A stretch of DNA of 64,000 nucleotides, from NCBI GenBank assembly GCA_964016885.1, contig OZ024743.1, forward strand, positions 263,810,001-263,874,000, given 5' to 3'. Below are positions 4,400-61,571 of this stretch, in pieces. The notes under the pieces are model-generated. The model did not search any database. It saw nothing but the letters and a program-made list of their open reading frames with translations, and was not told the DNA's origin. The position numbers and the translations under genes are program-made. The DNA is from Eledone cirrhosa (taxonomy: Eukaryota). Each line of letters begins with the position of its first letter. Within the stretch, counting starts at the first letter, position 1.

Positions 4400-6260
4400 T
4401 GAACGCGTTCCATCAGTATATCAACCTATTGTATCGAGCGTAGAAGGACCGCTCTACAAAATTTCATGGCTCCTAGCCAGAATACTGAAACCCATACTAG
4501 ACACCTTGTCGGGACACGTAAACAGCTCCGAGAAGGTGTTGGAGCGCCTGTATCAATTGGATCCCGACACCAGAAAGGCCCTCAGCCTTGATGTGGTTGC
4601 TCTTTACCCCTCGGTTCCGGCGCTCCCAGCCGTTGATATACTGATGGAACGCGTTCAATCTACCGACCTACACTGCTTCAAACTCACCACCACTGACATC
4701 CACCAACTCCTATCCGTCGTCGTTGACAACACGTACTTCGGTTTTCTCGACCAAACATACCGGCAAAATCGGGACTGCCCATGGGCTCAAGCCTGTCGGG
4801 TGTGCTAGCGATCTCATACATGGACAGCCTTGAGCGCAAGGCACTCAACACCTGCCACCCCAACGCCGTCGCCTTTTTCTCAAGGTACGTTGACGACATC
4901 CTCATCCTCACATCTTCCCAGGAGATGGCGAACGGAATTTATGAGACGTTCAACAACACGGACGAGAACATTGATTTCAGTGTTGAACACCCCAGCGACG
5001 ACGGGTCCCTTGCCCTCCTTGACTTCCGAATCAACATCACGGAGCAAGGAGGTATCCACACCAACTTCTACCGCAAGGCAGCCTGCAGGGACTTGTTCCT
5101 CCTCCACTACAAGTCTGCCCTCCCTAACAGTGCTAAAAGTGGGTACATCACGAACGAGATCACGCGAATTAAAAACAGATGCAGCGATCCCGTGAGTGGT
5201 GTCAACCACACCAAGCGATTCCTCAAAGTGCTGGAGACGAACGGGTACCCAGCCTCGCTTACAAACAGAGTAAGAGACGCCAGACGCAAGAGGCGGAGAA
5301 ACAACAAAGACAAGTGTTTCCTTAAAATACCACACCTCGGCGAGAATAGCACCAACGCTATCCGCAGTGCTATACGGAGAGAGGGCCTCGACACCCACCT
5401 AGCCCACTCGGACCCCTCTCGGCGGAGTTGCCTCTCCAGGAAACCCGGGAAATCGAATGACGCGTGTTCCCTCAGAAACTGTCCGATGCGCCATACGAAC
5501 TCTTGCTTACGCACATACGTGGTATACAAGGTTGTGACAAGTGCAACCACTACTATATCGGTAGCACCATCCAGCCGCTACATATCCGGATCTAGGAGCA
5601 CATCAACACCAGGGCTTCGTCTTTCCGGAAACACATAACCAAATGCGGAAACAAAGACGGAAGGCCCAATGTCACAGTGCTAGCCGCAGAACGCAATGTC
5701 GGGACGTTACGAATCAAGGAAGCACTTTGGATCAAACGCATAGGGCCACAATTAAATAACCGATCCGGGAGAAGCGAGATGAGGTGGTTGGTGTAAACAA
5801 ACGAGACAACAACACACGCACACACACACACACACACACAAAGTGGCATTCGAACGGTTGATATTGTGTGTGTAGCACCGCCACCTTCCACCGACCAACA
5901 AGCGACCAGGTAGACTAAAACCATACGACTATACTACACTGCTAGTACCAAAAACCAGCACAGATAAATAGTACAATGGATTGACAGCTAACGCCATCCC
6001 ACTCCCACAATTAAAAGAACTGCCTCGACCTTTGCTTGACAGCACCTATTCCGCGCGCACGTGCGCTCTTCAGAATACCTCAGTTAGTCACAAACAGCGA
6101 ACAGCAGAAGACACGTACCAACAGATAAATTTCCGCCCCCGGAAAAGCCCCCAGCTGATGGATGCGAATCCGAAATATAGGGACAATTAAATCTCTCCCA
6201 AGGTAACTCTAGCTCGTGCTATTTTTTTTTTATTTTTTACGCGCTTTCCTACGTTCCTCT
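4400..6260 (+). mobile_element. 5'-truncated Penelope-like element (Nematis-like RT + GIY-YIG), frameshifted
   Basis: ORFs 4506-4808 and 4781-5638 contain SLDVVALYPSVP, PMGSSLSG, FSRYVDDIL, LALLDFRI and a Cys linker CSLRNCP..C..YVVYK. After a frameshift the read continues CDKCNHYYIGSTIQPLHIR. Confidence 0.9.
6148..6183 (+). ncRNA. Degenerate minimal hammerhead ribozyme in PLE 3' pLTR
   Basis: CCCC-CAGCTGA-T-GGAT gcga ATCC-GAAA-TATA-GGG has helices I and II intact and a palindromic ATAT helix III. The core has 2 mismatches to CUGAUGA. Confidence 0.55.
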
Positions 6261-6458
6261 ACACACTATAATCTCATTCTACATTCCCTCACATCTCTCT
6301 CTTCACCAGCGCATCCTGTTAGCCGGTGACTTACCCATCTGCATTGCTGAGGCTTCCAAAACGGCCAAAAGAAAATAAATCATATGTATGTATGTATGTA
6401 TGGATGTATGTATGTATGTATGTATGTATGTATGTATGTATGTATGTATGTATGTATG

Positions 6459-8306: not shown

Positions 8307-9240
8307 AAAGAATAGAGGTGTAACACACAAGTTATTATATATTATTATATATTGGTAAACGGAATAGAAAATGCTGACAAATTGTTCACAGTTGAAAAAT
8401 GGTTTAATTAGGAATAAAAGAGTATTAGTAATTGTATGGGTTAGTATTCAGTTGTGGTTTTAAGTTTTTAAGTTTTTACCGGTTGCGCATTTCTAAACGC
8501 TTTTCAAAAATAATTTTGAGATAGAGTGTCCGTGTTGTTTGCTCTGATCTGATTAGTTTTGGGAATTCTACCTGTTTTTATGTTAAAAAAGTGGCTCCAG
8601 CGCTACTTTGGTGTTGCAAAAATTCTTGTGGTCAAAACAATTTTGATTGGTTGGTAGAGGTCATGTGAATGTAAAAAATTGATTTTGCGCCAAGACTGTT
8701 TTTATGTTAAAAAAGTGTATCCAGCGCTACTTGGTGTTTGCAAAAATTCTTGTGGTCAAAACAATTTTGATTGGTCGGTAGAGGTCATGTGAATAAAAAA
8801 TTGGTTTTGCGCCAAGATTGAGAAATGACTCTTTCACAACAAATATCGCCACGTGACCGGGTTGGGTCAAAGCGGCAAAAGCGTTGTCTCATACAATACT
8901 GTGTGCACCATCTGCGCAGCTGCGTGTGTGAGGACGGATGAGGGGATACTCATCAAGTACATGCCTCCGGTGTTGGGAGCACGCGGGTGCGTCATGTATG
9001 TGTTACCACAGACATGCATGAACACGGGTGTGCGCATGGCTGGGTCAATGAATTTGTCTGAGTATGTCTGCGTGGGGGTACGGATGACTATCTTTAGATT
9101 TTTCATTTTCATCTGTCTATATATGTGCGGCGTCTTGGCTGAGTCCTGTGTGTGAGTGTAGAATTGGGTGTATTTGTTGAAAACACCTTTAATATAGCCT
9201 TTCTGTTTGAAAGCTTTCATTTAAAAACGTTCTTGATACA
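8303..9240 (-). mobile_element. PLE 3' end/pLTR of the same family as the 54.1-57.2 kb palindrome
   Basis: 8303-8845 aligns with 54107-54530 and carries an internal ~120-bp duplication (8570-8820). It starts at a (TA)n run. The right boundary is uncertain. Confidence 0.75.
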
Positions 9241-13760: not shown

Positions 13761-14630
13761 GTTATCCATATTCTACAATCTAAAATTGTGGCTTTATGCT
13801 TACGTTAAATATCATCAATCCTTTTAACATACTTCATGTTGCGGATCAATTGAGCATTCAACACAATTACTTTCATTATATTCTGAATTCAAATTCCCCC
13901 AACGTTGACTTTGAATTTCCGCTTCCGTGGTCAATGAAATAAGTATCCACCTCTTCCTGCAGTCAAATGGACTAAATTCTGTCTTTTTGCTTATGCCAGA
14001 AACCAAAACAATTACTAACGTTATCATAGTCATAGTAACAGATTTGGCAGTTACTTAAGTGTGTTTTCGTTTGGATTATATGAGGATATCACAACTGAGA
14101 GGTGTGAAGTATATCGATAAAATAGCAATATGATATAAAACAGCAGGATATAGGATATTGGGACACAGATCGATAGTATTTATTGCGATAGTCTGCCACA
14201 AGCGTCGAGTCTGACATGTATAGTACAACATATTATGATTGGGGTGGGATAAGGGAAGTCAACCGAGTCACTTATAGGAAATGATCTTATCGATCCGGTG
14301 TTAACATCGAAACCAATGTAATTTGAACTCACATATATAAGGCATCAACGTAATGATAGATATGGAGAAGTATTGAGACTGAATTTGTATATCCTGCAAC
14401 ATTTCAACAGATTCTACATATCTGTCATTTATTAGATATCTCACAATATTTCATATTGACTATACTAATATACATACAAACACACACACACACACACATA
14501 TCTATCTATCTATCTATATATATATATATATATAAATGAAGTAATTCCGTAGGAAATGTCCAGGAAAAAAGAGTGTTCTATGTAAATTACAGAGCTTATT
14601 AGTTATGTAATAAACAATATAAGATAATTA

Positions 14631-14690
14631 TTTCATTTACCAGTGGTTTCTTGAAGGCAACCAAGATTGCTTTCATTCATCAGAATGAAA
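14631..14690 (-). ncRNA. Type I hammerhead ribozyme (canonical core)
   Basis: TTTCATT-CTGATGA-A-TGAAAGCAA tcttgg TTGCCTTCA-A-GAAA-CCA c TGG-TA-AATGAAA has a 7-bp helix I, a helix II, a short palindromic helix III and a GUA site. Confidence 0.85.
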
Positions 14691-14804
14691 AAATTCTGGT
14701 GTCTTTATTGACAGTGGATATGAAAAACAAAAATATAACAGATATGAAAGTGAAGCTGGAGGAAAAAAAGGGGGGGGGGAAATAATAAATACGAATATAT
14801 AACA

Positions 14805-14836
<32 letters not shown>

Positions 14837-14912
14837 ATATACATACATATATACACGCATATATACACATATATATACACAGATACACATATACATACAC
14901 ATATACATATAT

Positions 14913-15533
14913 GAATGTATATATAATGTATTTTGCAATACACTGTATGCTTAACTAAAAAGCATTTCGAAGACCTTACGCTATTGTTTTAGAGTAGTGA
15001 CAGTCTCACTTACTTTAAATTTTCAGCAAAAAGGGGGAGATAAAGCTGATAGAGCTCTGTTTCGTACTTATTGGTACGTTTCAAAGCTAAGTACTCCACC
15101 TGTTTGCTGAAAATCATGTATGTTTAATTCTTATAGAATTCTAGTAATAATCAGGAACTGATTACACAGAGCGGTTGCCGGTCAAGCAGAAATTGAAAAT
15201 TAGAATTGGTGCACTGAAATAGCTATATATATATGAATGTATATATAGTGTATTTTGCAATACACTGTATGCTTAATTAAAAGCATTTCGAAGACCTTAC
15301 GCTATTGTTTTAGAGTAGTGACAGACTCACTTACTTTAAATTTTCGGCCAACAGGGGAAATAAAGCGGACAGGTGGAGTACTAAGCTTTGATAAGCACCA
15401 ATAAGTACGAAACAGAGCTCTGTAAGTTTTATCTTCCTTGTTTGCTGAAAATTTAAAGTAAGTGAGACTGTCACTATATATACATTCATATATATATCGC
15501 TATTTCAGAGCACCAATTCTAATATATATATAT
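14913..15533 (-). mobile_element. HHR-bearing mini-element: 322-bp unit, partial second unit and nested fold-back
   Basis: 14913 repeats at 15235. 15366-15477 is the reverse complement of ~14996-15105. An outer inverted pair lies at 15199-15247 and 15476-15533. Confidence 0.8.
15383..15429 (+). ncRNA. Type I hammerhead ribozyme with U3-A8 core
   Basis: AAGCT-TTGATAA-GCAC caataa GTAC-GAAA-CAGAG CTCTG-TA-AGTTT. The mirror copy at 15043-15088 (-) has a perfect GTAC/GTAC helix II and core TTGAAAC. Confidence 0.8.
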
Positions 15534-15561
15534 ATATATATATCCATACATAAACACACCA

Positions 15562-15690
<129 letters not shown>

Positions 15691-15750
15691 CATATATATA
15701 TACATATATGTATATATATATGTGTATATATATATAAATATATATATATA

Positions 15751-16330
15751 TTTAGAAACACACAGATACATGCGGACACACACATATATACATGAATGCA
15801 TCCGCACCCAACTGTGAGTTAAGGGTGCCAACTTCACCGATGTTGCTCAATGAATGACTGGGACAGACCAATTCAGTTTGAACCAGACTGAACCAGTATC
15901 AGAGTTAAAAATACATTATGAAGAGAGAAGAAACATTTAGATATAATTAGTAATAAAATGTATCATACATAAACTGTTCCTAAATTCCTCGACTACGTAG
16001 TTTCGTGGCATAAACAAAAACAATATATCAAAGATATAGAGTCCTTGCGAGGTCTGCCGACTTATCAAGAGGATACCTCATTTTACTAGTCTCAAGAACG
16101 CCTCTACACGACGTGAGAAAGAATCCCAAAAGGCGGAGGGGGAGATAGTCACGCGATATAACGGTCGAGAAACTGAGCTAAGCCTCTTATAACCACGAAG
16201 AAAATACCACGGAGGCGGAGGGGGTATTCATATCGAGGCCGCGAAACTACGTAGTCGAGGAATTTAGGAACAGTTTAGGTATGATACATTTTATTACTAA
16301 TTATATCTAAATGTTTCTTCTCTCTTCATA

Positions 16331-16334
<4 letters not shown>
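15751..16334 (-). mobile_element. Circularly permuted copy of the 591-bp HHR element with terminal inversion
   Basis: It starts mid-monomer, crosses the monomer junction near 15915 and runs to 16240. 16241-16334 is the reverse complement of ~15912-16006. HHR at 15986-16073 (-). (TA)n on both sides. Confidence 0.9.
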
Positions 16335-16381
<47 letters not shown>

Positions 16382-16907
16382 CACATACAGATATATACAT
16401 ACATACACACACACATACACACACACATATATACATACATGCATACGTACTCACATATAAAAGGATACATATGCACACACACAAATAAGGATAAATAATC
16501 ATAGTAGGCCGTCACACAAATAAGCAAATAAAAAATAAGGATTAAGAAAATAAAAAAATATAAAAAATATTATTAAGTTGTCAGCGATACAAGACAGCAA
16601 AAATAAAAATAAAAATAAAAATAAAAATAAAAATAAAAATAATAAAAATAATAATGATTTCATTTATTGGCCACAAGGGCCGACATATAGGGGACAACAC
16701 AATAGACAGGGACAGTGGGGGTTTACATAGAGATCGAGTAAGTATAAATAACAAAAAACAAAATAACAATAAAAATACAACAATGAAAGTTCCCCAATAA
16801 GAGGGATCACCACCCAGGGTTGACTCAAGCACCCCACCAGTCCTGAGCCACCCGACGCTCCTAGGGCACCCGGGAAGGGCACCCCTCTCCTTCTCGAATT
16901 CACCAGC

Positions 16908-19900
16908 CTACAGGCGCATGATCAGAGTAGGCCCACTCACGCGGGCCATTCTCGCCACATGCACCCACCTTTCAGTAAATGTACTGGGGGGCAGCACTTC
17001 TCTCTCCACCCTCACCTTCCTTTCCAAGTGAAACTTGAAGAAGTTGATGAGGGATTGGCCGAAGAGAAAAGTGTCTGTCTTCAGTCCTTTCAACCTGGTC
17101 CACCATGCAACCTCTTTCGCTACTGCCACCAGGCAGAGAAAAATTGCCTGCCCTTCCTGATCAAAAGAAGGCGGCGGGTCAATCTTCACTATGGACTCGG
17201 ACGATAGCCGGATCCGTTCTACACGCGACAATAGCTGTTCGACATAACCCCACAAGTCAGCAATGCACGGACACTGGACGAGTGCGTGCAGAACGGTTTC
17301 GTCGTTCTGCGCGCATCTCGGGCAGGTTCGTCTGACAGCACTTCCGTGCCTGTAGAGTTTATCCCGAACCGGCAGCGCCCCCCGGTAGCACTGCCAAGCG
17401 AGGGATTTCTGGAAGTTATCCATCGTCCCCGGCTCGAAAGTCCTCCGGAACATACTGGTCAGTTCTACTTCGTTGACGCCTAGAGCCTCTCCTAGTACGT
17501 CATCGTACTTGCCCTCCACTAATCCTCTATAGAAATCTTGAGTGGAAGTTCCACTGACCGCATTGCCCACCTTGCAGAGTGCAGTGAGCGCCTGGCAACA
17601 TTCCAGATGCCAGTCGCCCAGTCTCGGTCTCTTCTTGACCCAGGACTGCAGCTCAGTCAAAGAGATGAGCTGCGGAAAGGCCCGTCTAACAAACGGCGAC
17701 CACACCTGTTCACCGTTTAGGCAAAATATCTGGAGATGTCGCAGCCTCAGCGCATGTCTGCGCATCATTAGCCACGGCATGCCCAGCCCTCCACGAAGAG
17801 GGTGCTGGCAGCAGATGGACCGCCTCACCAACGGGACCCGTCCCCTCCACAAAAATTTGAAAAGGAGCCGTTCCAAATTGGCAAGGCGTGGACGGGGGCA
17901 AGGAACGACGGTCAGGCGGTAGTAGATGACGGACGCGATGTACGCCTTCGCCACCTCCGCCCGCCCTTTCAGTGATAGCTTTCTCTCAGCCCATTTCTGG
18001 GTGAGGTTGGCTATCCTGCTCGTCACCTCGTCCCAATTCTTATCCACCTGGAGGTCTGGTCCGAACCAAACCCCGAGCAACTTTACCGGTCCGTCTGTCC
18101 AGCGCCCAACGACGCTGTTGGACGGCATGGACTTGCCTCTCCAGGTGCCGAGCTGCAAGCCCACCGACTTTTCCGGGTTAAGTTTTGCTCCCGTCAACCT
18201 TTCATATTCCTCCAAATGGGTGCGGATCACCTCGATTTCCGAGGTGTCCGACACCATCACGGTGATGTCGTCCGCATAAGCGGACGCAGCCTTTCTACGT
18301 CCCGGTTCGAGCGGGATGCCCTGCAACAACTCCAGCTTCCGCAGTAGAGGCTCAAGAGTCAATACGTACAGAAGTGAGGAGAGAGGGCACCCTTGACGGA
18401 CCGATCGAGAGATCTGAAACGGTTCCGAGAGGTGGCCATTAACTTTGACCACCGAGCAGATGCCGCTGTACATTGCAGCGATCCAGCTTCTGAAGACGGG
18501 GCCGAAGCCAGCCGCCTCGAGGACAGCCTCCAAGTACCGATGGTCGACCCTATCGAATGCTTTCGATTGATCTAAATTGATCAGAGCCCCACCGAAGCCA
18601 GGTTTGCACCCAACCCTCTCTATGATGTATCGCATGAGGTGGAGGTTGTCGTGTATGGATCTGGTCGGGATTGCGCAAGTTTGCGCCTCCCCAACCAAAT
18701 CTTTGACGACAAGCGCCAACCTTTTCGCTAACACCTTGGCCAAAATCTTAAACTCTGTGTTGAGCAGGGTTATGGGCCTGAAATTATCTAGTGTGTCCCT
18801 CTTGTTCTCGTCTTTCCTTATCAGCGTCACTACGCCACGGCTCACAGAACTGGGAATGCTCCCGTTCTGCTGCCAGTTGCAGTAGAGCGCTTCGAGGAGA
18901 TCGGAGAACAAGTCTGGCATATTTACGTAAAGCTTGTAGGGCAGACCATCCAAACCGGGTGACTTCCGACTCGAGCAGCCGACAAGGGCGTCCTGAATTT
19001 CGACTGATGTTATCGGCTCTTCGCAGCGCTCAGCGTCGGCCGTCGAGAGGCGTGGCAAGCCGTCGAGGTAGGGACTGAAGTCCGCCGCCGTCTCCGACTC
19101 ACCCATCCTCCCGAACAATCGAGCAAAGTGCTGGCGAAAGGCCTCACACATCTGCTTGGAATCGCTCAGTTCGTGTCCATCTCGATCCGTCAAAGAGCGA
19201 ATTGTGGTTTTATTTCCACGCTGCGTCTCCGCAAAGCGAGCCCATCGGGCAGCTTTGGTTCCCTCGTTCCTCAGAGCACGCGCCTTAGCTCTGACAATGC
19301 AACCTTCGTGTTTCGCATTGAAGAAATTGTCTAGTGCCATTCTCGCCGCTAGCACGTCTGTTGCAATGCCACTACAAATAGCCTCGTCTAACTTAGCTAT
19401 CAGCCCCTCCTCCTTTCTATTTTTCTCTATTGCTACTTCTTTGCTAAATCCTATCGAGGTTGCTCTAATCTCTCTTTTGAGAGCCCCCCACCACCTGTTG
19501 TTGACAACCTCCCTGTCAACTTTTGCTTAACTAAGTTGTTGACCCGGTCCCTGTAAGCTTTACGTGCCGGAAACGACATGTTTAGCTTCCAGTAGCTAGG
19601 TCCTAACCTACGTGTCTTATCTAGGTCGACCATACAGATCACAAGCTTGTGATCTGAATAGGCAACCGTTTTAAAATGTGGACATCCTACACTATTTCTA
19701 TCTCTTTTCCTAATGAAAATCCTATCTATGTACGATCTAGATGACCCTATGCGATTGGTCCAGCTGCATACTGGCGCATTAGGGAAATCTAGTCGGTACC
19801 TGTCAGACAGTTGAAACTGGCTGATCAGGTACTTGAGGCTTTTGCACCCCCCGCTCCTATCAGATACTCCCACACAATCCCAGCGTGCTTCTAAGATGCC

Positions 19901-20326
19901 ATTCCAATCCCCTATTAACAGTAAAGGGCGAGACGTAAGCAGAAAGTTTTCCAGGCGCCTAAAGAAGTCCGGCCGACCGGCCCCAGTAGGGGCGTAGACG
20001 GCCACCAGTCTAAAGGCACCACCTTCGCTATTGCTCACGTCCAGGACCACCAACTTTCCGTCAGGATCCCGGAAGATTGACCTTACCTCGAGATCCAGAC
20101 ATTTCCTAAACAGCACAGCCACTCCACCTCCCATTCCCGGCCGACTAACAGATGCAAAGATCTGATAATCGTCGAAAATCGGCGCCAGTGCGCGTGTCTC
20201 GGAAATTCTGGTCTCGCTGATGGCAATTACATCCATTCCTAGTGACCTGAGGTCGTTGAGCAAGTGACCTTGCTTCCAGGGCGACCCCAGGCCACGAACA
20301 TTTAAACTTCCTACTCTTATGGCCAT
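16908..20326 (-). CDS. Tx1 A ORF2: APE endonuclease + reverse transcriptase + Cys-rich C-terminus, one frameshift near 19510
   Basis: SLNVRGL, ISET, VYAP, GDWN, IDRIF, SDH (APE); KSPGLDG, NFRPITLLN, LDQSKAFDRV, VRQGCPLS, YADD (RT); CPRC..ETVLHALVQC. Confidence 0.92.
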
Positions 20327-20355
20327 GCTGGCAGGATGAATGGGAGAGGAAAGGT

Positions 20356-22268
20356 TTACTTACCTTCCGGGGTCTTGTGAAGGTCGGGTGGTTCGACCTC
20401 CATGGTTTGTGGGGTTTCTTTTGGGAACCCCTTTAATAGTCTTGAAGTGGGTTTTACGTTCGGGGTTCCCACATCCCGAGGAAAGCTCTTTCGAATTTCT
20501 TTGTATGAAGCGAGCGACATTCGCATCAGAAGCAAATTATCTGGTACGCGAAATGTGCTCGCTTCAAATGTTTCCCCCTCTTTTTCGATGTTTGTGCTTC
20601 GTGCTACATGGGCCATCAATTCCTTGTTGGCCCTTCTGGCAAGCACGAAGTTTTTAATGTTTTGTTGCTCGGGTTTTATTTGTTCGTGTGATTGTGGTGG
20701 TGATAGCTTTGTTAGTGTTGTTTCTATTGTGTCTGCGTTTGTTGTGGGTGGGGTGTCTGTAGTTTCTGATGTTTGTGTGTCTATTTGTTCTTTTGTCTAT
20801 TTAGCTTGTTTGCGTTTGGGGGATTTTGGTGGTTGTGTTGGTGATGCTGTGGGGAAAATGTTTGTGTGGGTGGTGTGTGTATTTTTTTTTGTGGGGGTGT
20901 TTGTGCTTTGTGGATTTCTTTTTTTTTTTGTGTTTTGTTTTTTGTATTTTGGGGGACTTTGGTTTTCCCTCATCTTCACTGCTGGAGGATGAGGGGTCTG
21001 TGGCTGTGAGCGTGTTTGTGTCTGAGTGAGTGTTTATGTTCTTGTTCGTGTGTGTATTTTTTGGGGGGGGGAGGGGGAATGGGAGAGCTTTCCTCGTTTC
21101 CCCTCTGGGTGTGCAATTTTGGTGGTTCCATTGTTGACGGTGTTGCTGGTGGTCCTTGTCCCGGCGTCTCCAGCAGTGGAATCTTTCGACCCCTTGCGCT
21201 TTTCGGCAGTTGAGGGCAGAAGGCTCGTAAGTGTGTCGTTTCCCCACAAAGGAAACAATGCGGCCTTTTGCCCTCAGTCATTATATGCAACACCCTCCAG
21301 TTTTGGAGGCGGATGTGGTCCGGGATTGCTTTTACGTTTTCGGGTCTGATTTGGAGCAGTATCTCCAGATCAACCCCGGACCAGTCGTCCCTGGCAGTTC
21401 TCGTTGCCTCTACCGGGACTGTATCCGTTCCTTCCACGATTACGCAACCCAGGAGCCACCACATATCAAGTCCTGGTGGAATCCTGGGAATGCGCACACG
21501 TGCTATTCGTTTTCTCATGTGGGAGGGGTACATTATGACTTTGCTGGTTTTGCAAGGGGTCATTGAATGCTTCACAGCGAGGGCTTCAGACTTGAACAGC
21601 ACCGAAACGGTGCCGTATTGCCTGCCCCTCTCTATGAAGTCTGTGTCCTCTCTGATGTATTTCAGTGCGGCTTCTATATCAGCTTGGGCGATTATCGCTG
21701 CCCTCTTTGTCTCTACTGAGATGCATCTGAAATGCACCGTTCTTTTTTCCACTGCCTCAATGGCTTCTGCCGGGACAGTTAAGTTTGCCCAGGTCTGCTC
21801 TTGATTTATGATTTTCCAGGCCTGGGCCAACTTTTCCTCTCTGTTGGTTAAGTCGATGCTGTAGCATGGTCTCCTTTTAGCCGCTGCCACAGCAGCGAAG
21901 GTGTTCTTGTTGGTGTTGTAACTGTTGTTGTTCTTGTTGGTGTTGCTGCTGCTATTGCTGTTGTTGTTCTCCCCTGTGTCGTGGTTACCCTCTGTGCTGT
22001 TGGCCTTGTTGGTGCTGTTGCTGTCGCTACTATTACTCTCTGTGCTGTTCGTTTTGTTGGTGCTCTCGCTATTACCACCTTCTGCGCTGTTCGGCTTGTT
22101 GGTGTTGGTGTTGTCGCTGTTACCACTCCGCGCCGCTCGGCCCGTTGGTGCTGGCACTGTCGCTGCTCACACTTGTGCTGGTGGCGCTCCTCGCCCACCT
22201 CTCCTCTCAACGCTCAAGTCGCCGTTGCACGACAGCAGACCCGCCTCTAGGGGGCGTGGCTCCGCCAT
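20356..22268 (-). CDS. Tx1 A ORF1 (gag-like, CCHC knuckle), disrupted
   Basis: ATG at 22268 is in frame with ORF 20976-22157 apart from a TGA at 22169-22167. Asn/Ser/Thr-rich N-terminus and CFLCGETTHLRAFC knuckle. The frameshifted C-terminus ends PEGK*. Confidence 0.75.
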
Positions 22269-22479: not shown

Positions 22480-25400
22480 AATAATAATAATAATAATGAT
22501 TTCTTTATTGGCCACAAGGGCTAACATCAAAAAAACATAACAGACGGCACAGGACGGTACAGGACGGTACGATGTGGGTTTTGTGCGTGGAAATATTTTT
22601 ATTATTTATATAAGAAAAGAAAAAAAAAGGACATAGAAACATATATAAACAATAAAAATGAAAATTGAAACAATGAAAAGTTCCCCAATAGGGGGGAAAC
22701 CTCCTAGGGTTACTCGTGGCGAAAACAACACTAAAGACCACGGCCACCCTGACCACCAGGGCAAGCGCCCTCTCTCAATTTTTCCAGCTTTCAAACTACA
22801 GACGTATCTTCAGAGTGGTCCCGTTCACTCGGACCATTCTCGCTACATTCACCCACCTTTCAACAAACTTGCTAGAAGGCAGCACTTGCCTCTCCACCCC
22901 GATTTTCCTCTTCAAGTGCAACTTCAAAAAGTTAATTAGGGATTCGAGGAAAGTGTCTGTCTTTAACCCTTTTAACATTGTCCACCACACAATCTCGTTC
23001 GCCATGCCCACCAGGCAGGTGAAAACCGCCTGCCCTTCCTCCTCGAAGGAAGACGGTGAGACCATCTGCACAATGGACTCAGTCGACAACCGGATCAGTC
23101 CTACACGCGACAGCAACTGTTCGACATAGCTCCACAAGTCAGCAATGCTCGGGCACTGAACGTGTGCGTACACGACGGTTTCGTCGCTCTGCGCGCATCT
23201 CGGACAGGCTCGGCTGACGGCACTTCCGTGCCTGTAGAGCTTATCTCGAACCGGCAGCGCTCCCCGGTAGCACTGCCAGACCAGGGATTTTTGGAAGTTA
23301 TCCATAGGCCCTGGGCTGAAAGTTCTCCGGAAGAGAACAGCTGATCTTCTTCGACGCCCAGAATCTCTCTGAGAATGTCGTCGCTCTTCCCCTCCACTAG
23401 TCCTCTATAGAACGCCGAGGTGGATGTTCCACCGATACTGGTGCCCAACTGGCAGAGGGCAGTGAGTGCCTGGAGACATTCCAGTTTCCAAGCGCTATCC
23501 CTCGCTCTTTTTCTGACCCAGGACTGCAGCTCCGTCAACGAGACGAGCTGAGGGAAAATTGTGCCTGGCGAACGGCGACCACACCTGTTCACCATCAAGG
23601 AAGCACCAGAGATGTCGTAGCCTCAGCGCATGTTTGCACATCATCAGCCATGGCAGGCCCAGTCGGCCACGCAACGGGTGTTGACAGCAGATGGATCGTC
23701 TGACCATGGGAGCGCGTCTCTTTCACAAAAAGCGGAAGAGGAGGCGCTCCATTTTGGTGAGAGTTGGGCTGGAACAAGGGACGACGGTGAGGCGGTAGCA
23801 GATCACGGATGCGATGTACGCATTCGCCACCTCCGCCCGGCCTTTCAGGGACAGCTTCCTTTCGGCACATTTCTGGGTGAGGGAGGCCACCCTGCTCGTC
23901 ACCTCGTTCCAGTTTTTCACCATCTGGAGGTCCGGTCCGAACCAAACCCCGAGCAATTTAACCGGTCCGTTCGTCCAAACCCCCACGACGCTGTCGGACT
24001 TCATGGACTTGCCTCTCCAGGTGCCGAGCTGCAAGCCCACCGACTTTTCCTGGTTTATCTTTGCTCCTTCACCGCTTCGTATTCCTTGAGAGCGGTGCCG
24101 AGCATCTGGACGTGTCTGGTGCTTGACACCACCACGGTGACGTCGTCAGCGTAAGCCGACTCGGATTTCCCGTATCCTAGATCGCGTTGGACGCCCCTCA
24201 TCGCCCCCAGTTTGTGCAGTAACGGCTCGAGAGCCAATACGTACAAGAGGGGCGAGAGGAGACAACCCTGGCGGACTGAGCGCATGATGCTGAACGGCTG
24301 CGACAGGTGACCGTTCACCTTCACAACTGAGCAGATGTCGCTGTACATTATTGCGATCCAACCCCTGAAAACGGGCCCGAAATCGGCTGCCTCGAGGACC
24401 GCCGCCAGGTACCGATGGTCGACCCTATTGAATGCTTTGGATTGGTCCAAGTTGATCAGGGCCCCACCCGTGCCAGGTTCCTTAACCACCCTCTCTATGA
24501 TGTATCGCATGAGGTGGAGGTTGTCGTGTATGGATCTGTCCGGAATGGCGCATGTATGCCCCTCTCCCACCAGACACTTGACGACAAGCGCCAACCTCGT
24601 TGCTATCACCTTGGCCAAAATCTTGAACTCTCCGTTTAGCAGGGTTATGGGCCTGAAATTATCGATAACATCCCCCTTGTTAGGGTCTTTTCTCAGCAGC
24701 GCCACTGCTCCTCGGCTCACAAAACTTGGAATGCTCCCGTTCTGCTGCCAGTTGCAGTAGACGTCTGCCAAGAGGTCACCGAACAAGTCTGGCATAAATG
24801 CATAAAGCTCGTAGGGGAGACCAAACCTGGCGATTTACCCCTTGTGCAGTTAGCCATCGCTTCCCGTATTTCACCGGCTGTTATTGGCTTTTCGCAACAC
24901 TGTGCTGCGGTCGTCAAGAGCCGAGGCAGTCCGTCGAGGTATGCACTGAAGTCCATGCCCCGATCCGGGCCGCCGCCACTCCCGAACAGTTCAGCAAAGT
25001 GCTGCTGAAAAGCTTCACACATCCACTCGGGTTCGAGCATCATGCACCCGTTTTGGTCAGATAAAGACCGAATTGTGGCTTTGTTGCCACGTCGCGCCTC
25101 TGCCACACGGGCCCATTGGACGGCTTTTGTCACCTCGTGTTTCAGAGCACGCGCTCTAGCTCTGACAACGCAGCCTTCGTGTTTTGCGTTGAAGAATTGG
25201 TCGAGTGCCAATCTCGTCGCAAGCACGTCGGTTGCGATGCCTGTCCTAAACGCCTCTTCTAGCTTTCTGACTAGCTCTCCCTCTACTCTATTTTCCTCTA
25301 TCACTATTCCTTTGCTAAACCTAATCGACTCTACTTTAATTGCCCTTTTCAGGGCGAACCAACACCTGTTGTTGACGACCGCTCCCGTCAACGCCCGGTT

Positions 25401-28110
25401 AACTAATTCGCTAATCCTGTCTCTGTAGGCTTTGCGCGCAGGGAAAGACCCGTTCAGCTTCCAGTAACCAGGCCCTTGTCTATGAAGTCTGTCTATGTCG
25501 ATCTCACAGATCACAAATTTGTGGTCTGTGTAGTCGACTATTTTAAATTGTGGACAACTTATACTAGCCTTATCTAGTTCTCTGCAGAATACCCTATCGA
25601 GATACGATCTGGATGACCTGATGCGGTTTGTCCATGTCCACATTGGCACATTCGGGTGATCCAATCGATACCTGTCAGACAGTTCAAAACGTCTGAGCAG
25701 GTTGGTGAGGCTCTTGCACCCTCCTCCCCTATCCGCTAGCCCCACACAATCCCAGCGTGTATCCAAGATACCGTTCCAGTCGCCCACTAACACTAAAGAG
25801 CGGGACGTTCCATAAGGTCTCTAGACGTCTGAAGAAATCTGGCCGTCCTGCCCCTGTTGGGGCGTAGACGGCTACTAGCCTGAAAGCATTGCCTTCGCTG
25901 CTGGTCACGTCCAGCACCACCGACTTACCTTCTGGGTCTAGGAAGATGGCCCGTATCGCGAGATCCAAGCCTCTCCGAAAAAGGACGGCCACCCCTCCCC
26001 CCGATCCTGGACGGCTGGGAGATGCGTATACACGTAGCCGCCGAAGATCGGTGCGAAGGCTTGTGCTTCGGAGATTCTGGTTTCACTGATGGCCACCACA
26101 TCTATGTTTAGTGACCTGAGGTGGTTGAGCAGATGATCCTGCTTCCAAGATGACCCCAGGCCACGTGCATTTATACTGCCTATTCTGAGTACGGCCATGT
26201 TGGATGAGAAACGGGGCAAGTGAGAAAGGGTCACTTACCTTGTTCGTGTGGTGAAGGGACAGTAGAACCGTCCCTTTCGCTGGTCATGGGGGTTTCCAAG
26301 AGGATGTCAGTGTATATCCTCTTGGTAACCGACCCTCTGAAGTCTCCAACTGCGTTGGGGAATTTTTGTTTTAAAGGTTTGTACTGTTATATTGAGATTT
26401 CGATGATTCTTCTGTTTGTCGGGAGAGTTCTTGGTGTTGGTGGGGTGTAGTAGTTTTTTTCTGTGATGTCTGTGTGCTGCTTTATATATTGTATGAGTTC
26501 TTTTTTTGCCATGTTTATGGCTGTGTACTTTTTGGGGGAGGGGTGATTTTGTTGCTGTTTTTTTCTTGTTGCTGTTTGGTGTGTGTGTCTTGTTGTGTTT
26601 GCGTTGTTGGTGTTTTTGGTGATGCTGGCGGTGGTGTGGTTGTTGTTGTCAGTGGTGATTGTGGTGGTGATGGTGGTGGTGTTGCTGCAAGTTTCCTTGC
26701 TGCCTTTACCCCTCTTTGTATGCCTTCGCTTTTGGAGGGTGAATCTAAGGGGTTTTTCTTTTTTGTTTTTTTGTGGCAGACCGTTTACCACTTCACTCCC
26801 GCCTCAAACTCCATGTCGGATTCTGTCGCGTCTGGGAGAGGTATGTGCTCCACTGCTGTTGGTGGTGGTAGTGGAGCCCTCTTCGGCAATTTTGTTGCTG
26901 GTGTAGTTACTTCAAATGTAGCTATTGGTGTTGCCGCCAGTGATGCTGCTGCTTTAGTTGTCCGTGGCCTTCGAACGGGTGCTACAGACTTTGCGCTCCT
27001 ACTCACCGTGGAAGGGGCTTCTGCGTTTGTTTCCTGCCCTGTTCTTCGTAGCAGCGGACCTGGTATTGGAAGGAGAGGAGCCTTCTTCTTCGCTGTCTTC
27101 TGCGGACAAAAGGCCCTGAGGTGACACTTCGACCCACAGAGATAACATTTTGGCCGTCTTCCTTCTACACTTATAGGGAGTTGGAGTCCTTCCCCGATGT
27201 CTATGATATCTGGGATAGCGTCGATACATTCCTTGTCAGTTTGTATATACATTTGCATGCCTATACCTGACCAGTTCTCTCTCCCTATTTTTCTACTTGT
27301 AGCATGGTCGTCCTGTTCTCGATTCCAGGAAGGACAGACGCGGCCAGCCAAGGTATGGCCACGTCGGGTGGGACCTAGGTCACTTTGACCCTCACAATGT
27401 TCTGCCCGCAGTAGGAGGGCACCAAGACTATCTCCTCACTCTTTAGGGTTTCCAAAGAGTGAGGCTTTGATTCCTGGGGGGTGGCGAAAAGTACGTCTAC
27501 TGTGGCGTACTTTCTGCCTCGGGTGATGTGGGTTTTGCGTGCCCAGACGCACCCCAAGGCCTTTTGAATTTGAGCCTCCGTGGCTCTCTCCACCAATGTG
27601 AGATTTTGCATAGGTACGGTAAGTCACCATCCGTAGCTGCTGGTCCTTGAAAAAATCGGGTGGAGGTTTCAGGGAGACTCTATTGGCGCTTCTTGGCACC
27701 ATGGCCCTTGCGACTGCCATCTCCTCCTCTGTGACTATAACTGTCTCGATAATTCGGGCGACACCTGCAAAAGAAGTGGTCCCTTTTTCAGCAGCACCAC
27801 TATTGCTGCTGTTACTGATCTTACTGGTGGTGCTGAGATCGCTATTACAGGTATCGATGTCATTGTTGATGTTTTGGTTGGTACTGTTGTTGCTGTTGTT
27901 GATGTTGTTTTCGTTGATACTGTTGCTGTTGTTACTGTTATTGTGGCTGTTGTTATTGTTGTTTTTGTTGATACTGTTCCTACTATTATTGTTGTTGTGG
28001 CTGTTGTTATTGTCATTGTTATTGCCCTTCTCGACCTTACCGCTGTTATTTTTGTTATTGTCGTTCTCGACTTTACCGCTGTTATTTTAGTTGTTGCTGT
28101 TGTTATTGAT
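22480..28110 (-). mobile_element. Tx1-type LINE B (diverged relative of A), multiply frameshifted, probably truncated in ORF1
   Basis: ORF pieces carry SINARGL, GDWN, NFRPITLLN, LDQSKAF, YADD and CYLCGSKCHLRAFC. The 3' end is ccttgtggccAATAAA plus (ATT)n at 22480-22500. Confidence 0.9.
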
Positions 28111-30000: not shown

Positions 30001-30571
30001 TGTGACGGCCTACTATGATTATTTATCCTTATTTGTGTGTGTGCATATGTATCCTTTTATAAGTGTGTACGTATGCATGTGTGTATATATGTGTGTATGT
30101 ATGTGTGTGTGTATGTATGAATGTTTATGTGTATATATATGTATATATATATGTGTGTGCATGTATATATATATGTATGTGTATATATATATACATATAT
30201 GCGTTGGTGTGTTTATGTATGGATATATATATATATGTATATGTGTGTATATATGTGTCTCTGTGTATATATATGTGTATATATGCATGTATATATGTAT
30301 GTATATATTTATATATGTGTGTATATGTGAGTCTGTGTGCGTGTGTGTGTGTACGTGTGTGTTGTTATACATTCTTATTTATTATTCTCCCCGCCCCCCT
30401 TTTTTTCCCCTCCAGCCTCACTTTCATATCAGTTATATTGTTGTGTTCCATATCCACTGTCAATAAAGACACCAGGACTTTTTCATTCTGATGAATGCAA
30501 GCAATTTTTGTAGCTTTCAAGAAACCACTGGTAAATGAAATAATTATCTTATGTTGTTTATTACATAACTA
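30001..30571 (+). mobile_element. Inverted 5' pLTR of the nested Hydra-like PLE, with HHR copy at 30481-30540
   Basis: Inverted match to 14601-16516 without the nested inserts. HHR reads TTTCATT-CTGATGA...GAAA-CCACTGG-TA-AATGAAA. Confidence 0.8.
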
Positions 30572-30620
30572 TATATATATTTACATATAAAGGTTTACAT
30601 ATATATATATATATATATAT

Positions 30621-31766
30621 ATTATGAAGAGAGAAGAAACATTTAGATATAATTAGTAATAAAATGTATCATACCTAAACTGTTCCTAAATTCCTCGACT
30701 ACGTAGTTTCGTGGCATAAACAAAAACAATATATCAAAGATATAGAGTCCTTGCGAGGTCTGCCGACTTATCAAGAGGATACCTCATTTTACTAGTCTCA
30801 AGAACGCGTCTACACGACGTGAGAAAGAATCCCAAAAGGCGGAGGGGGAGATAGTCACGCGATATAACGGTCGAGAAACAGAGCTAAGCCTCTTATAACC
30901 ACGAAAAAAATACCACGGAGGCGGAGGGGGTATTCATATCGAGGCCGTAGAAGAGGTAGTGAAGAAGGCGAGAAGTATGAGTAATGGAAGCTTTCCAGTT
31001 GTCCCCACACTTCAAAGATTGCTCGACCAGAGGGAGTTATTAATACATTTAGAAACACACAGATACATGCGGACACACACATATATACATGAATGCATCC
31101 GCACCCAACTGTGAGTTAAGGGTGCCAACTTCACCGATGTTGCTCAATGAATGACTGGGACAGACCAATTCAGTTTGAACCAGACTGAACCAGTATCAGA
31201 GTTAAAAATACATTATGAAGAGAGAAGAAACATTTAGATATAATTAGTAATAAAATGTATCATACCTAAACTGTTCCTAAATTCCTCGACTACGTAGTTT
31301 CGTGGCATAAACAAAAACAATATATCAAAGATATAGAGTCCTTGCGAGGTCTGCCGACTTATCAAGAGGATACCTCATTTTACTAGTCTCAAGAACGCGT
31401 CTACACGACGTGAGAAAGAATCCCAAAAGGCGGAGGGGGAGATAGTCACGCGATATAACGGTCGAGAAACAGAGCTAAGCCTCTTATAACCACGAAAAAA
31501 ATACCACGGAGGCGGAGGGGGTATTCATATCGAGGCCGTAGAAGAGGTAGTGAAGAAGGCGAGAAGTATGAGTAATGGAAGCTTTCCAGTTGTCCCCACA
31601 CTTCAAAGATTGCTCGACCAGAGGGAGTTATTAATACATTTAGAAACACACAGATACATGCGGACACACACATATATACATGAATGCATCCGCACCCAAC
31701 TGTGAGTTAAGGGTGCCAACTTCACCGATGTTGCTCAATGAATGACTGGGACAGACCAATTCAGTT

Positions 31767-31769
<3 letters not shown>
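30621..31769 (-). mobile_element. 591-bp tandem repeat (~1.9 copies) with one hammerhead per unit; candidate retrozyme
   Basis: Period 591 (30621/31212, and identical ORF-track entries at 30855/31446). HHRs at 30692-30779 and 31283-31370 on -. (TA)n flanks. Confidence 0.9.
30692..30779 (-). ncRNA. Type I hammerhead ribozyme, U3-A8 core, branched helix II
   Basis: TCCTC-TTGATAA-GT(C)GGCA-[44-nt insert with two hairpins]-TGCCAC-GAAA-CTAC GTAG-TC-GAGGA. Confidence 0.8.
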
Positions 31770-31816: not shown

Positions 31817-31820
<4 letters not shown>

Positions 31821-33469
31821 GTTTGAATATGTATAATAAAGCCAAAACAATGCAGGTATGGACATAGAAAAATAGAAAAAAGAATGCAATTGCAAAAGAT
31901 ATTGTTGACAAATCGTCTTTTACCTTAGATTTATTTAAATGTCCTTAATTTTCGAGATAATATCTCTTCTTCAGAGGGAAATAAAGGTCTCAAACCAGCT
32001 TTCTAAATATCTAGCCAAGCCATGCTGACAGGAAATAGTATAGAGTATCTGTTCTATCTCTAATGTCAAAGAGTTAAAATTAGGTGGATAAAGAGTAGTC
32101 TCCCTTTAACGAACAGGTCCCTACTGGACTTCCAAATCAGGGTAACAGAGGAAGGCAACATCCACACCTGCTTCTATAAAAAAGCCGCCAGCAGGGTACT
32201 GTTCGTACATTTCAGATCGGCCCTCCCACTCGGTGCCAAGTTCGGATACAAAAGGAACGAACTGGCACGTATCCGGAACAAATGCACCGACGCTAGAGAC
32301 CGAGACACACACACCACACATTTCCTGGAAGTACTCAAATTGAACGGATACACGACATCCACCACAAACCGTGCCAGAAAGGACAGAGGACACCACACCC
32401 GAGGCACTAACACTTGCTTCCTGAAGCTCCCGCACTTCAGTGAAGAAACAACAACAGCCACCCGCAGAGCCATCAGACGAGAGGGACTAGATATCCAACT
32501 GGCCCGATCAAGTCCTTCTCTACGCGGACAGCTAACCAAAAGACACTCTACCAGACATGACAACTGCTGAAGACTAGCCAACTGCCCCATAAACGACACA
32601 GACCTATGCCACCAGGCTTACGTCGTATACAGACTAGAGTGTGACAAATGCAACAACTTCTACGTAGGTAGCACCACCAGACCACTCCACATAAGAATAA
32701 AAGAACACCTCAATACTAACGCTTCCTCATTTAAGAAACACCTAGTTAAATGCAAAAACACCGACAAAACCACAACAGTTAGGATAGAAACTAAGGAAAG
32801 AAACCTCGGCAATCTTAGAATTAAGGAAGCACTAATTATAAATAAAACACAACCACCAATCAATAATAGACTAGAACTCAACACCCAATTTATAACCTGA
32901 TAGGGCTTCTAGCCCCATATTTACACCCCCACCCACACACACGCTTACACCTCCACTTATTCTATCTCACACATACACACACAAAACCAGTTCTAACACC
33001 AGATAACACCTATCCCCCACATTTACGAATAGACTTATCTTCTCACACTCACACACACACACTCACATAGTTACACCTTCATGCATTCTCCCACACACTT
33101 AAACAGGCATGTATATAAAAAAGAAAACCCTAATCAAACCCATTTTAAAGGGAGACTACTCTTTATCCACCTAATTTTAACTCTTTGACAGATTAGAGAT
33201 AGAACAGATACTCTATACTATTTCCTGTCAGCATGGCTTGGCTAGATATTTAGAAGGCTGGTTTGAGACCTTTAGTTCCCTCTGAAGAAGAGATATCTCT
33301 AAAATTAAGGACATTTAAATAAATCTAAGGTAAAAGACGATTTGTCAACAATATCTTTTGCAATTGCATTCTTTTTTCTATGTCCATGCCTGCATTGTTT
33401 TGGCTTTATTATACATATTCAAACGTTTATACCTCATTACACAATACTTCACGTGAACTATAACCTCCT

Positions 33470-33472
<3 letters not shown>
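31817..33472 (+). mobile_element. 5'-truncated Nematis-like PLE with inverted 5' pLTR and 3' tail
   Basis: Coding relic 32121-32900 (LLDFQI, FYKK, CFLKLPH, VVYRLECDKCNNFYVGSTTRPLHIRIKEH). Inverted arms at 31817-32109 and 33145-33428. Tail at 33431-33472. (TA)n flanks. Confidence 0.9.
31943..31977 (-). ncRNA. Minimal hammerhead ribozyme of PLE pLTR
   Basis: CCT-CTGAAGA-A-GAGAT att ATCTC-GAAA-AT-TA-AGG has a palindromic AAUU helix III. A damaged mirror copy lies at 33279-33310. Confidence 0.75.
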
Positions 33473-33541
<69 letters not shown>

Positions 33542-33594
33542 GCAACGGGTCACTTTGTGGCTCAATGAAGAGTTAATAAATTAAATAATCAGAG

Positions 33595-33905
33595 CTATAT
33601 ATCATAAAACATGTCTATAGAATCACCAGATAAAATATATACCATTTCCTCTCCCAATTAGCATAATTAACCATATAAAAAATCGATTAGACCACGCTAT
33701 AAGAATAAAGGCTTCTATGAAGAAATCTCCGACAAATAACCGAAAGCAGCTCTTCGCATTGGTTGCGACGGAGTATTTATCGAGTAAGGGCTGCTTTCGG
33801 TTATTTGTCGGAGATTTCTTCATAGAAGCCTTTATTCTTATAGCTTGGCCTAATCGATTTTTTATATGGTTAATTATGCTAATTGGGAGACTAAATGGTA
33901 TATAT
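33595..33905. mobile_element. Fold-back element, ~115-bp arms
   Basis: ~33636-33753 is inverted at ~33787-33905. A short unique left tail and TA-rich borders are present. No clear ribozyme core. Confidence 0.75.
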
Positions 33906-33908
33906 ATA

Positions 33909-37017: not shown

Positions 37018-37018
<1 letters not shown>

Positions 37019-37760
37019 GTTATTCCGGGTTGAATCGGAAGTAACCACAGTAAGTAAGGTACTCAATACATAGCAGAGTATAAAAGTTTTAATATAGATG
37101 AGATTCTACAGGACTAGAACTGTTTAATCCTTTAGAAATCATCAGGAATCTGGCTTTCCCAAAATAAATGTTGTAGTATTTATATCTTTTCAGGTGGTAG
37201 GAGAGGGTGGGGAGTGGGATGGGTAGAGGTCATTGGCTGAAAGAAAAGGGAATTCATTAAAAGCTAATTCTTTAAGGCTTATAATTTATATTTAGAATTT
37301 TTGAACTGGTTTATAGAATTTTTGAACTGGTTTATAGAATTCTCTTGGCCTTTGTCACTCTAAGTGGAACTTTAAAGAATTGGCTTTTAAAGAATTTCCA
37401 TTTTCTTTAAATCCATCTACCATGACCGACCCCCAACGATCTTATAGACACCTGAAATATAGGCATTGTTAGCTTAAGAGAAACTTAAAAATAAGGAGTG
37501 GCACCCCATTCTGAACTTGTTTATAGAATCCTTTCTGCTTTTGTCACTCTAAATATAAATTATAAGCCTTAAAGAATTAGCTTTTAATGAATTGCCTTTT
37601 CTTTCAGCCAATGACCTCTACCCATCCCACTCTCCACCCTCTCCTACCACCCGAAAAGATATAAATACTACAACATTTATTTTTGGAAAGCCAGATTCCT
37701 GATGATTTCTAAAGAATGAAACAGGTCTAGTCCTGTACAATCTCATCTATATTAAAACTA
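37018..37760 (-). mobile_element. Fold-back HHR element (tail + ~210-bp arms) in (TA)n
   Basis: Arms at ~37085-37295 and ~37545-37759. The tail has GTACTCAA at 37059. HHR-like GATTC-CTGATGA-tttctaaagaat-GAAA-CAG-GTC-TAGTC at 37694-37732 (+), with a mirror at 37112-37150. Confidence 0.8.
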
Positions 37761-43779: not shown

Positions 43780-43781
<2 letters not shown>

Positions 43782-43965
43782 CGAAGGAAATGTGGTAAGG
43801 AACCAGGTGGACCATAACGCACCAAAGTACTCAATACTTGAGGTAGTAGAGTGGGTAATAGGAACCAGTAAGACCCCGACAGCTGAGCTCAAGCCGTTTC
43901 GACGGCTAATTCTCAGAATTAGCCGTCGAAACGGCTTGGGCTCAGCTGTCGGGGTCTTACTGGTT

Positions 43966-43970
<5 letters not shown>
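43780..43970 (-). mobile_element. Mini fold-back PLE terminus (56-bp arms, 1-nt loop)
   Basis: Arms 43858-43913 and 43915-43970 have one mismatch. ~78-nt tail. (TA)n flanks. Confidence 0.9.
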
Positions 43971-53985: not shown

Positions 53986-57254
<3,269 letters not shown>

Positions 57255-60931: not shown

Positions 60932-61504
60932 ACGTACATATATACAGACATATAAATCTGTAGCATACATCCATACATTCGTAAACACTCATAATTACAT
61001 TCTTCATCTATTTTCGGTAGACTTACATTCCCCCCCCCCCCCCCCATTAAAATATACTTTTGATGACGCTGCAGATGGTTCACCGACATACACTATAATC
61101 TCATCACTGTGTTATATAAATTTGGGTAGTCTCAGCAAGATTCCATATTTACGTCAGATACTGCATGATGTATTGCTGAATGCAGTTGCATATTGATGCA
61201 GATACCATCTACCTGTATATTGGTTTTATTATTAATGCAATTGTTAGAAATATAATTTATATTGTAGTTGAGATTACTGGTCTGACAATTGGCAAAAAGA
61301 ATTGGAAACTAATATTATACTAATTTTATACGTCACAGTTACACACAGACACGAATGAACACATCCACAAACACGCATACATCAATAAATTAATTTCAGA
61401 GAGAATATGAAGCAATCTATGAATCCAACCAACCCTCTTTCTGTCTCTCCCTCTCCCTCAGTCAGTTCCTCTATTTGTACACACATACCACACACATGGA
61501 TAAG

Positions 61505-61571
<67 letters not shown>

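Follow-up and report, generated by a model that had tools for sequence, protein, structure and literature searches.

How did a third copy of a 591-nucleotide (nt) hammerhead-bearing unit come to lie, partly inverted, in a (TA)n tract 15 kb from a tandem array of the same unit, and what template and enzyme does its form point to? The question arises in a 64,000-nt stretch of DNA from Eledone cirrhosa (the window), which is AT-rich (38% GC) and microsatellite-rich and contains LINE and PLE fragments. The initial annotation regarded the third copy as circularly permuted and inverted at its ribozyme, and attributed it to a circular or multimeric RNA integrated by Penelope-like (PLE) machinery. Two insertions of the 591-nt family are available in the window, the third copy and the array:

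30617-31769, minus strand: tandem array of the 591-nt unit, 1153 nt or 1.95 monomers, both ends in (TA)n
31369-31284 and 30778-30693, minus strand: complete hammerheads of the array, 591 nt apart

With monomer position 1 set at the first base 3' of the predicted cleavage site, the 5' end of the array is at monomer 110 and its 3' end, beyond two ribozymes, at monomer 80 (site A, described below). As 562 monomer positions are present twice and 29 once, it demands a tandem or circular template; an uncut multimer and a circle are indistinguishable from DNA in this role. The units are arranged head-to-tail with no LTR-internal-LTR layout and are identical save for one base at the TA junction. Each of the consecutive units has a complete type I hammerhead, the feature by which non-LTR retrozymes are recognized; the third copy has one and a half. 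The unit is classed as non-coding; the longest stop-to-stop frame in the monomer has 86 codons and runs across a degenerate microsatellite. No PLE-like N-terminus is evident by eye among its short ORFs, and the array, which closes on itself after 591 nt, has no coding stretch from one ribozyme to the next. The RT plus GIY-YIG ORF by which an autonomous EN+ PLE is recognized is absent from the unit and was seen only in unrelated neighbours. With copies 99% identical, this non-coding family with resolvable ends appears to be young. The degenerate TA/TG microsatellite (31043-31100, monomer 190-245) is folded as a hairpin and is possibly target sequence captured by an ancestor.

Comparison of the unit with the coding PLEs of the window (BLAST and nhmmer) returned only the known copies and microsatellite-like matches. 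Within the window, neither homology of the unit to any TA-anchored neighbour nor a homologous pLTR was found. Homology to the PLE 3' ends or flanking repeats of the window was rejected for 13 targets, the matches being AT-rich and out of ribozyme register; the best shuffle-test scores against these targets were z 3.0 (1/200 shuffles) and 2.8.

The ribozyme of the third copy was located as follows:

15986-16073, minus strand: predicted type I hammerhead, from descriptor scans, with a UC cleavage site after 15991

It has a 5-bp helix I, a U3-A8 core variant, a palindromic 8-nt helix III and a long helix II (57 nt from core to GAAA). A strict descriptor applied to both strands of the window gave three matches, all within the 591-nt unit and all on the minus strand; a relaxed descriptor gave six, three of them those in the unit. 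Shuffled windows (20) yielded 0.65 relaxed matches each, and 0 with a palindromic helix III and a C3-G8 or U3-A8 core. Since no Rfam hammerhead family matched the motif of the unit at E up to 1, nor at E up to 10, its assignment as a hammerhead rests on the descriptor scans. Rfam microRNA matches in the window were dismissed as microsatellite noise.

The monomer folds better than 100/100 shuffles (z -6.45). The predicted penalty of the active ribozyme fold against the alternative is 6.2 kcal/mol with the downstream 90 nt and 1.1 kcal/mol with only 10 nt, so cleavage may be weak or dimer-dependent. An intermolecular duplex of the helix III palindrome is possible (predicted -12.9 kcal/mol). In Xenopus, 8/9 predicted dimers did not cleave in vitro, according to a preprint (bioRxiv 10.64898/2026.07.22.740005).

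The third copy itself consists of two arms:

15746-16241, minus strand: long arm, RNA-sense monomer 341-591 then 1-245, equivalent to array 31043-31538 (491/496 nt)
16242-16336, plus strand: short inverted arm, RNA-sense monomer 577-591 then 1-80, exact reverse complement of array 31302-31208
16238-16241, no strand: head-to-head junction, GCC common to both arms, then a G:T mismatch resolved to the long arm

Its match to the array is far above chance (BLAST E 0.0), and the near-identity first noted is borne out at 491/496 nt, with coordinates right to within a few bases. The long arm differs from the array by four internal substitutions (15969, 16102, 16174 and 16200) and by 15749 at the TA junction; the short arm has 0 mismatches and its range is wholly within that of the long arm. 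The read-through of the junction sequence is confirmed, the long arm crossing array position 31208, as is the ending in (TA)n, which holds for both flanks. The strand jump at 16241 via GCC at the helix II/GAAA boundary also stands: GCC occupies 16238-16240, G16241 matches the long arm alone and the strand switches at the C11.1/GAAA boundary of the hammerhead. Exact microhomology of at least 3 nt is expected at 5% of random junctions in the 591-nt unit, so the GCC detail is of modest significance. Placing the breakpoint at the cleavage site itself was rejected, as it lies 15 nt upstream of the predicted site. The arms form an inverted repeat of 99 nt (98% complementary, spacer 228 nt), and the short arm, which ends at the array end site, has the 3' half of a hammerhead only. 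In the predicted fold, the 3' half of the sole complete ribozyme would be sequestered by the other arm as a long hairpin; the third copy was therefore probably inactive from the moment of insertion.

Because the hammerhead is on the minus strand, the supposed start of the third copy corresponds to an RNA 3' end. With its arms head to head, the copy joins (TA)n on either side through an RNA 3' end, that of the long arm bordering the left tract. The copy spans 496/591 nt, less than one monomer, and its short arm is nested in the long one; it therefore requires no circular or multimeric template, and one linear 496-nt RNA could template both arms. It is permuted relative to the left edge of the array only. 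Permutation thus fails as proof of a circular or multimeric template, since the linear RNA suffices, two of three ends coincide and the third lies in the same 8-mer; what survives of that claim is that the array, not the third copy, needs a tandem or circular template. Where an arm crosses the cleavage site, the template was uncut or re-ligated there.

The target of the insertion is revealed by its flanks and by a second copy of the surrounding repeat:

15576-15750, no strand: left (TA)n-rich target flank of the third copy
16334-16365, no strand: right (TA)n target flank of the third copy
30001-30575, minus strand: homologous empty site, second copy of an older microsatellite-bearing repeat
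14902-15523, no strand: non-coding element adjoining the third copy, unit ~321 nt, with a U3-A8 hammerhead, palindromic helix III and inverted TA-anchored layout

Positions 14597-14905, 15524-15600 and 16337-16516 align colinearly to 30575-30238, 30242-30142 and 30192-30001, respectively, and the repeat copy at 30001-30575 is without both the third copy and its neighbour at 14902-15523. Read as the equivalent of an empty site, it shows that the third copy inserted into a TA run. With (TA)n on both sides, a target-site duplication of the third copy is unresolvable. The older host repeat (14535-14800 and 30370-30575) itself bears a hammerhead-like motif, at 14683 (minus) and 30487 (plus), a case of ribozyme elements nested within one another. 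Elsewhere in the window are two LINEs, 75% alike, on the minus strand (16762-20366 and 22651-26241), with AP endonuclease, RT and zf-RVT domains, and C2H2 zinc-finger-like frames adjoining RT fragments (45485-45865 and 61389-61844).

The RNA 3' ends fall at two putative priming sites:

16330-16336, plus strand: putative priming site A, monomer 74-80, AATGTAT, the same as the array 3' end
15746-15752, minus strand: putative priming site B, monomer 239-245, the second of the two AATGTATT sites of the sense monomer

The sense monomer has just two copies of the 8-mer AATGTATT, at 74 and 239, and all three RNA 3' ends observed are within these two sites, two at site A and one at site B. For comparison, 0.28% of pairs among 38 TA-compatible sites have a common 7-nt suffix, although this test was chosen post hoc. 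Site A lies immediately 3' of a 75-nt hairpin, with the cleavage site 80 nt upstream, and the offset between the two 3' ends of the third copy is 165 nt. At 2/3 junctions, including site B of the third copy, A is present instead of the template G, as would be expected if the target (TA)n paired via a G:T wobble; with one such wobble, AUGUAU can form six base pairs with a (TA)n primer. An 18-nt TA/TG-compatible run at monomer 198-215 is unused as an end. The idea that RT is limited to unpaired TA-compatible sites was dropped, as site B (predicted unpaired probability 0.88) fits it and site A (0.18-0.29) does not. At internal ends, at least three TA-run bases are common to template and target in 10/13 cases (7/9 distinct sites; random breaks 7-15%), a count inflated by an alignment that allowed mismatches; the other 3/13 are without 3-nt microhomology.

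Neighbouring elements are arranged in the same way. Eight TA-bounded elements, the third copy included, were hand-picked from a masked self-comparison and form a selected set, not a census. All eight have inverted arms, and in most of them one arm outreaches the other by 35-110 nt; among the neighbours with this layout the arms are 90-96% alike. Pfam GIY-YIG matches were obtained in 2/8 (32571-32897, E 2e-07; 55291-55668, E 4e-05; 54 frames scanned). The elements that bear them, at 54108-57163 and at the following position, have inverted arms, outward 3' ends and a tail at one end, as in the third copy:

31818-33472, plus strand: 5'-truncated coding PLE (RT C-terminal part and GIY-YIG), with an inverted 3' arm, a ~45-nt tail and (TA)n on both sides

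This PLE has 48-49% identity to the RT frame at 4727-5635. A protein search with a neighbouring GIY-YIG frame gave 15 relatives, none bearing a clade name. Taken with the homologous empty site, the like-arranged GIY-YIG-bearing neighbours uphold both the independent, RNA-templated insertion with PLE-type inverted geometry and the link to PLEs that the initial annotation had proposed. Its inversion at the ribozyme is true of the third copy, 15 nt from the cleavage site, but need not be a rule, as breakpoints relative to ribozymes are mixed among the neighbours. At 31818, 54108, 62350 and 37018 the insertions invert at a distance from a ribozyme. In the element at 14902-15523, which is unrelated in sequence to the 591-nt unit, a junction zone (15364-15372) straddles the element's own candidate cleavage site and may mark a cDNA copied up to the end of an RNA that its ribozyme had cut. 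Three fold-back copies (2708, 43781 and 62101) invert ~10-38 nt from a candidate cleavage site, with the 5' half outside the window. A permissive ribozyme scan matched 7/15 regions (background 0.056 per kb of strand), most clearly at 15388 (+), 37699 (+), 63505 (+) and 14683 (-), and two neighbours gave weak Rfam HH9 matches (E 0.11 and E 3.8).

The window holds further elements of these kinds. The three fold-back copies (2708-2840, 43781-43967 and 62101-62291) are short copies of a hairpin element in (TA)n, with a tail of ~75 nt, perfect hairpins and palindromic centres; the fold-back centres differ, lying in or just upstream of an apparent hammerhead 3' half. Both arms of a non-coding inverted insertion at 37018-37759 carry a canonical-core type I hammerhead, which lies ~20 nt from the internal 3' end, and the tail measures ~68 nt. 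At 33540-36797 is a decayed PLE-like coding element that folds back internally at ~33770; RT- and GIY-YIG-like motifs can be made out by eye in its broken frames, and the frames tested gave no RT or GIY-YIG Pfam match. The related 3' fragment at 62350-63836, a further member of the selected eight, is 75-87% alike to it and has a hammerhead with a 108-nt helix II region (63505-63631). The GIY-YIG-bearing PLE fragment at 54108-57163 is arranged as a large inverted pair and contains (TA)n within its 3' region; another copy of its 3' end is present at 8312-8833. A longer PLE fragment (4400-6390) encodes RT (Pfam RVT_1, E 2e-08) and GIY-YIG-like sequence, with ~49-60% protein identity to the PLE at 31818-33472. 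The hexamer ATTGAG is found in the tails of several unrelated TA-anchored elements (37062, 43830, 62150, 63783 and 33561), in three families at 44-50 nt from the end. The 591-nt unit has it once (15846), and its background frequency is 0.34 per kb of strand. It is not in the tails at 33428-33472 and 54108-54146, and the pattern was spotted post hoc.

The third copy is one insertion event. The 591-nt unit is probably a non-coding, hammerhead-bearing element resembling non-LTR retrozymes that was moved in trans by the RT/GIY-YIG protein of a (TA)n-aimed PLE. From the arms, their polarity, the end sites, the empty site and the layout of the neighbours, we infer an RNA intermediate, the enzyme and priming on two strands; insertion by PLE machinery is very likely, and we lean, with less assurance, towards two-strand priming in particular. 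The PLE protein would bind RNA uncut at the ribozyme and nick both strands of the (TA)n tract. Each target 3' end would pair with an internal AUGUAU of the RNA (6 bp, one being a G:T wobble), priming a cDNA of 95 nt at site A and one of 496 nt at site B, and the two 5'-truncated cDNAs would be joined head to head via GCC and the G:T mismatch. This would leave RNA 3' ends facing outward, with the 165-nt offset equated with the PLE 'tail'. In its most specific form, the proposal is that a protein-less ribozyme RNA, possibly a circle, was integrated by a PLE dimer priming both (TA)n strands via sequence-defined internal sites, wobble included; in that form it is tentative. Evidence counter to a PLE origin of the insertion is that the unit has no sequence link to any coding PLE of the window. 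Also counting against the reading are the lack of an Rfam hammerhead match, the predicted cost of the active fold, the mostly paired state of site A, the unused 18-nt run, the 3/13 ends devoid of microhomology, the long 165-nt offset and the target-independent priming sites reported for PAc in vitro (PMC11167929).

Other explanations differ in the template, the priming or the enzyme. A circular RNA might have been reverse-transcribed from arbitrary points, giving permuted ends, with the structure of the ribozyme triggering the inversion. The array requires a tandem or circular template, every arm runs through the cleavage site, as expected of a re-ligated circle, and animal retrozymes form circRNAs that are proposed RT templates (PMC7229834); furthermore, the 15364-15372 junction straddles its own cleavage site and the three fold-back copies invert close to a candidate one. 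This explanation is nevertheless unlikely, since the ends are not arbitrary (2/3 at site A and 1/3 at the same motif), the third copy is accommodated by one linear 496-nt RNA, an uncut multimer accounts equally for crossing the cleavage site (PMC11167929) and the insertions at 31818, 54108, 62350 and 37018 invert far from the ribozyme. As the ribozyme makes up ~15% of the unit and is 80 nt from site A, short arms would stop near it anyway. Because the short arm lies inside the long arm, fold-back self-priming is a real rival to two-strand priming: a single cDNA from site B (496 nt) would have self-primed the short arm at a GCC 232 nt earlier and then been joined to the flank at site A. The GCC and G:T junction is as a fold-back would leave it, self-priming has been proposed for inverted PLE junctions (PMC3846280) and the family at 2708, 43781 and 62101 forms perfect hairpins with palindromic centres. 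We consider it improbable here, as the short arm ends exactly at the array 3' end, pointing to site A as a priming site, and the change at 15969 is private to the long arm, although later mutation would explain this too.

The unit could also be the pLTR or 3' part of an autonomous PLE outside the window, both loci being truncated tandem fragments. PLEs do insert as 5'-truncated partial tandems (PMC8969392; PMC8557442), the ribozyme type agrees with that of PLE pLTRs, and 24/57 Xenopus retrozyme families match known elements, mostly PLE termini (bioRxiv 10.64898/2026.07.22.740005). The closure of the array after 591 nt with no coding sequence between ribozymes, and the lack of a link to the coding PLEs of the window, make this origin doubtful. 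LINE machinery acting by L1-style twin priming is very improbable. In L1 twin priming, two primers on one RNA give adjacent, non-overlapping segments. AP-endonuclease/RT LINEs are present at 16.9-26 kb of the window and a dimer-length RNA could yield both arms, with a 328-nt gap; but there is no poly(A) or tandem 3' tail and no resolvable target-site duplication, the insertion is in (TA)n and its arms overlap in the way seen for PLEs. Repair copying at the DNA level from the array, or a fold-back artefact of assembly or library, is scarcely credible even though both loci are in or beside copies of one older repeat, in opposite orientation, and the arms are nearly identical. The third copy has four internal differences from the array, whose units are internally identical; the insertion place within the host repeat differs and the other repeat copy is empty there; and arms only 90-96% alike in like-arranged neighbours would not be expected of an artefact.

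Movement of the 591-nt unit by PLE machinery bears on two published questions. The case for PLE-moved animal retrozymes is built on shared ribozymes, co-occurrence and pLTR homology, and the origin of the inverted arms and tails of PLEs is still an open question. A young family with resolvable ends among like-arranged coding PLEs makes both testable in one genome. If the reading is true, the junctions are direct genomic evidence that an animal retrozyme uses PLE machinery, and the 'tail' of TA-targeting PLEs is simply how far apart two primer-pairing sites lie, in contrast to PAc, for which priming without homology is reported. No insertion-junction evidence for animal retrozymes appears in the titles and abstract openings listed by literature searches, a scope that excludes most subscription literature and preprint supplements. 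One inverted copy alone has the geometry expected of a PLE, and specialists would find it unsurprising. The third copy is real, well resolved and largely explained, and the kind of element is already known; the residual interest lies in the repeated use of one priming motif and in PLE-driven retrozyme mobility that can be tested genome-wide.

Tandem non-coding units with type I hammerheads are known as non-LTR retrozymes (PMC7229834). On the grounds of co-occurrence and pLTR homology they have been argued to derive from PLEs as non-autonomous elements (bioRxiv 10.64898/2026.07.22.740005), as was also proposed in PMC7229834. The 591-nt family shares with the animal non-LTR retrozymes a non-coding tandem unit, one type I hammerhead per monomer, low GC, a strongly self-paired fold and PLEs in the same genome. 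Its length falls in the 51-972 nt range of retrozyme units given in the preprint (bioRxiv 10.64898/2026.07.22.740005) but exceeds the 170-400 nt stated for invertebrates (PMC7229834). It differs in its U3-A8 core, very long helix II and inverted sub-monomer copy. Self-cleavage, as monomer or dimer, and expression as a monomeric circular RNA are further marks of non-LTR retrozymes. Target-site duplications of non-LTR retrozymes, when present, are longer than 4 bp.

The ribozyme is closest in kind to PLE-associated hammerheads, for which U3-A8 covariation and a palindromic helix III have been described (PMC4209133). In common with these it has U3-A8, a G10.1-C11.1 pair, a short helix I, a bulged long helix II and a palindromic helix III suiting dimeric cleavage; it differs from those described there in the 57 nt from core to GAAA and in that no Rfam model scores the motif.

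The insertion, in turn, resembles those of EN+ PLEs, in which inverted 5'-truncated arms, tails and a (TA)n bias are standard (PMC8557442; PMC8969392; PMC3846280). Shared features are an inverted 5'-truncated arm head to head with a sense arm, 3' ends facing outward with one longer, a (TA)n target and a hammerhead shortly upstream of the 3' end. In contrast to EN+ PLEs, the 591-nt unit is without an ORF and closes on itself, and its end offset is 165 nt against the usual PLE tail of 30-40 nt (PMC8557442). In the one in vitro system, Poseidon PAc of Anolis, a PLE protein is reported to cut both target strands and extend each of them, to initiate at two internal RNA sites, which delimit the tail, and to accept RNA that has not been cleaved (PMC11167929). 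The third copy, on the proposed reading, agrees with that system in two internal initiation sites, extension of both target strands, an AT-rich target and a template uncut at the ribozyme. PAc priming sites have no homology to the target (PMC11167929), whereas here there is complementarity to (TA)n of 3 nt exact, or 6 nt with wobble. In the sequence features assessed, the family fits the description of a non-LTR retrozyme and, though not itself an autonomous PLE, is inserted as a PLE is.
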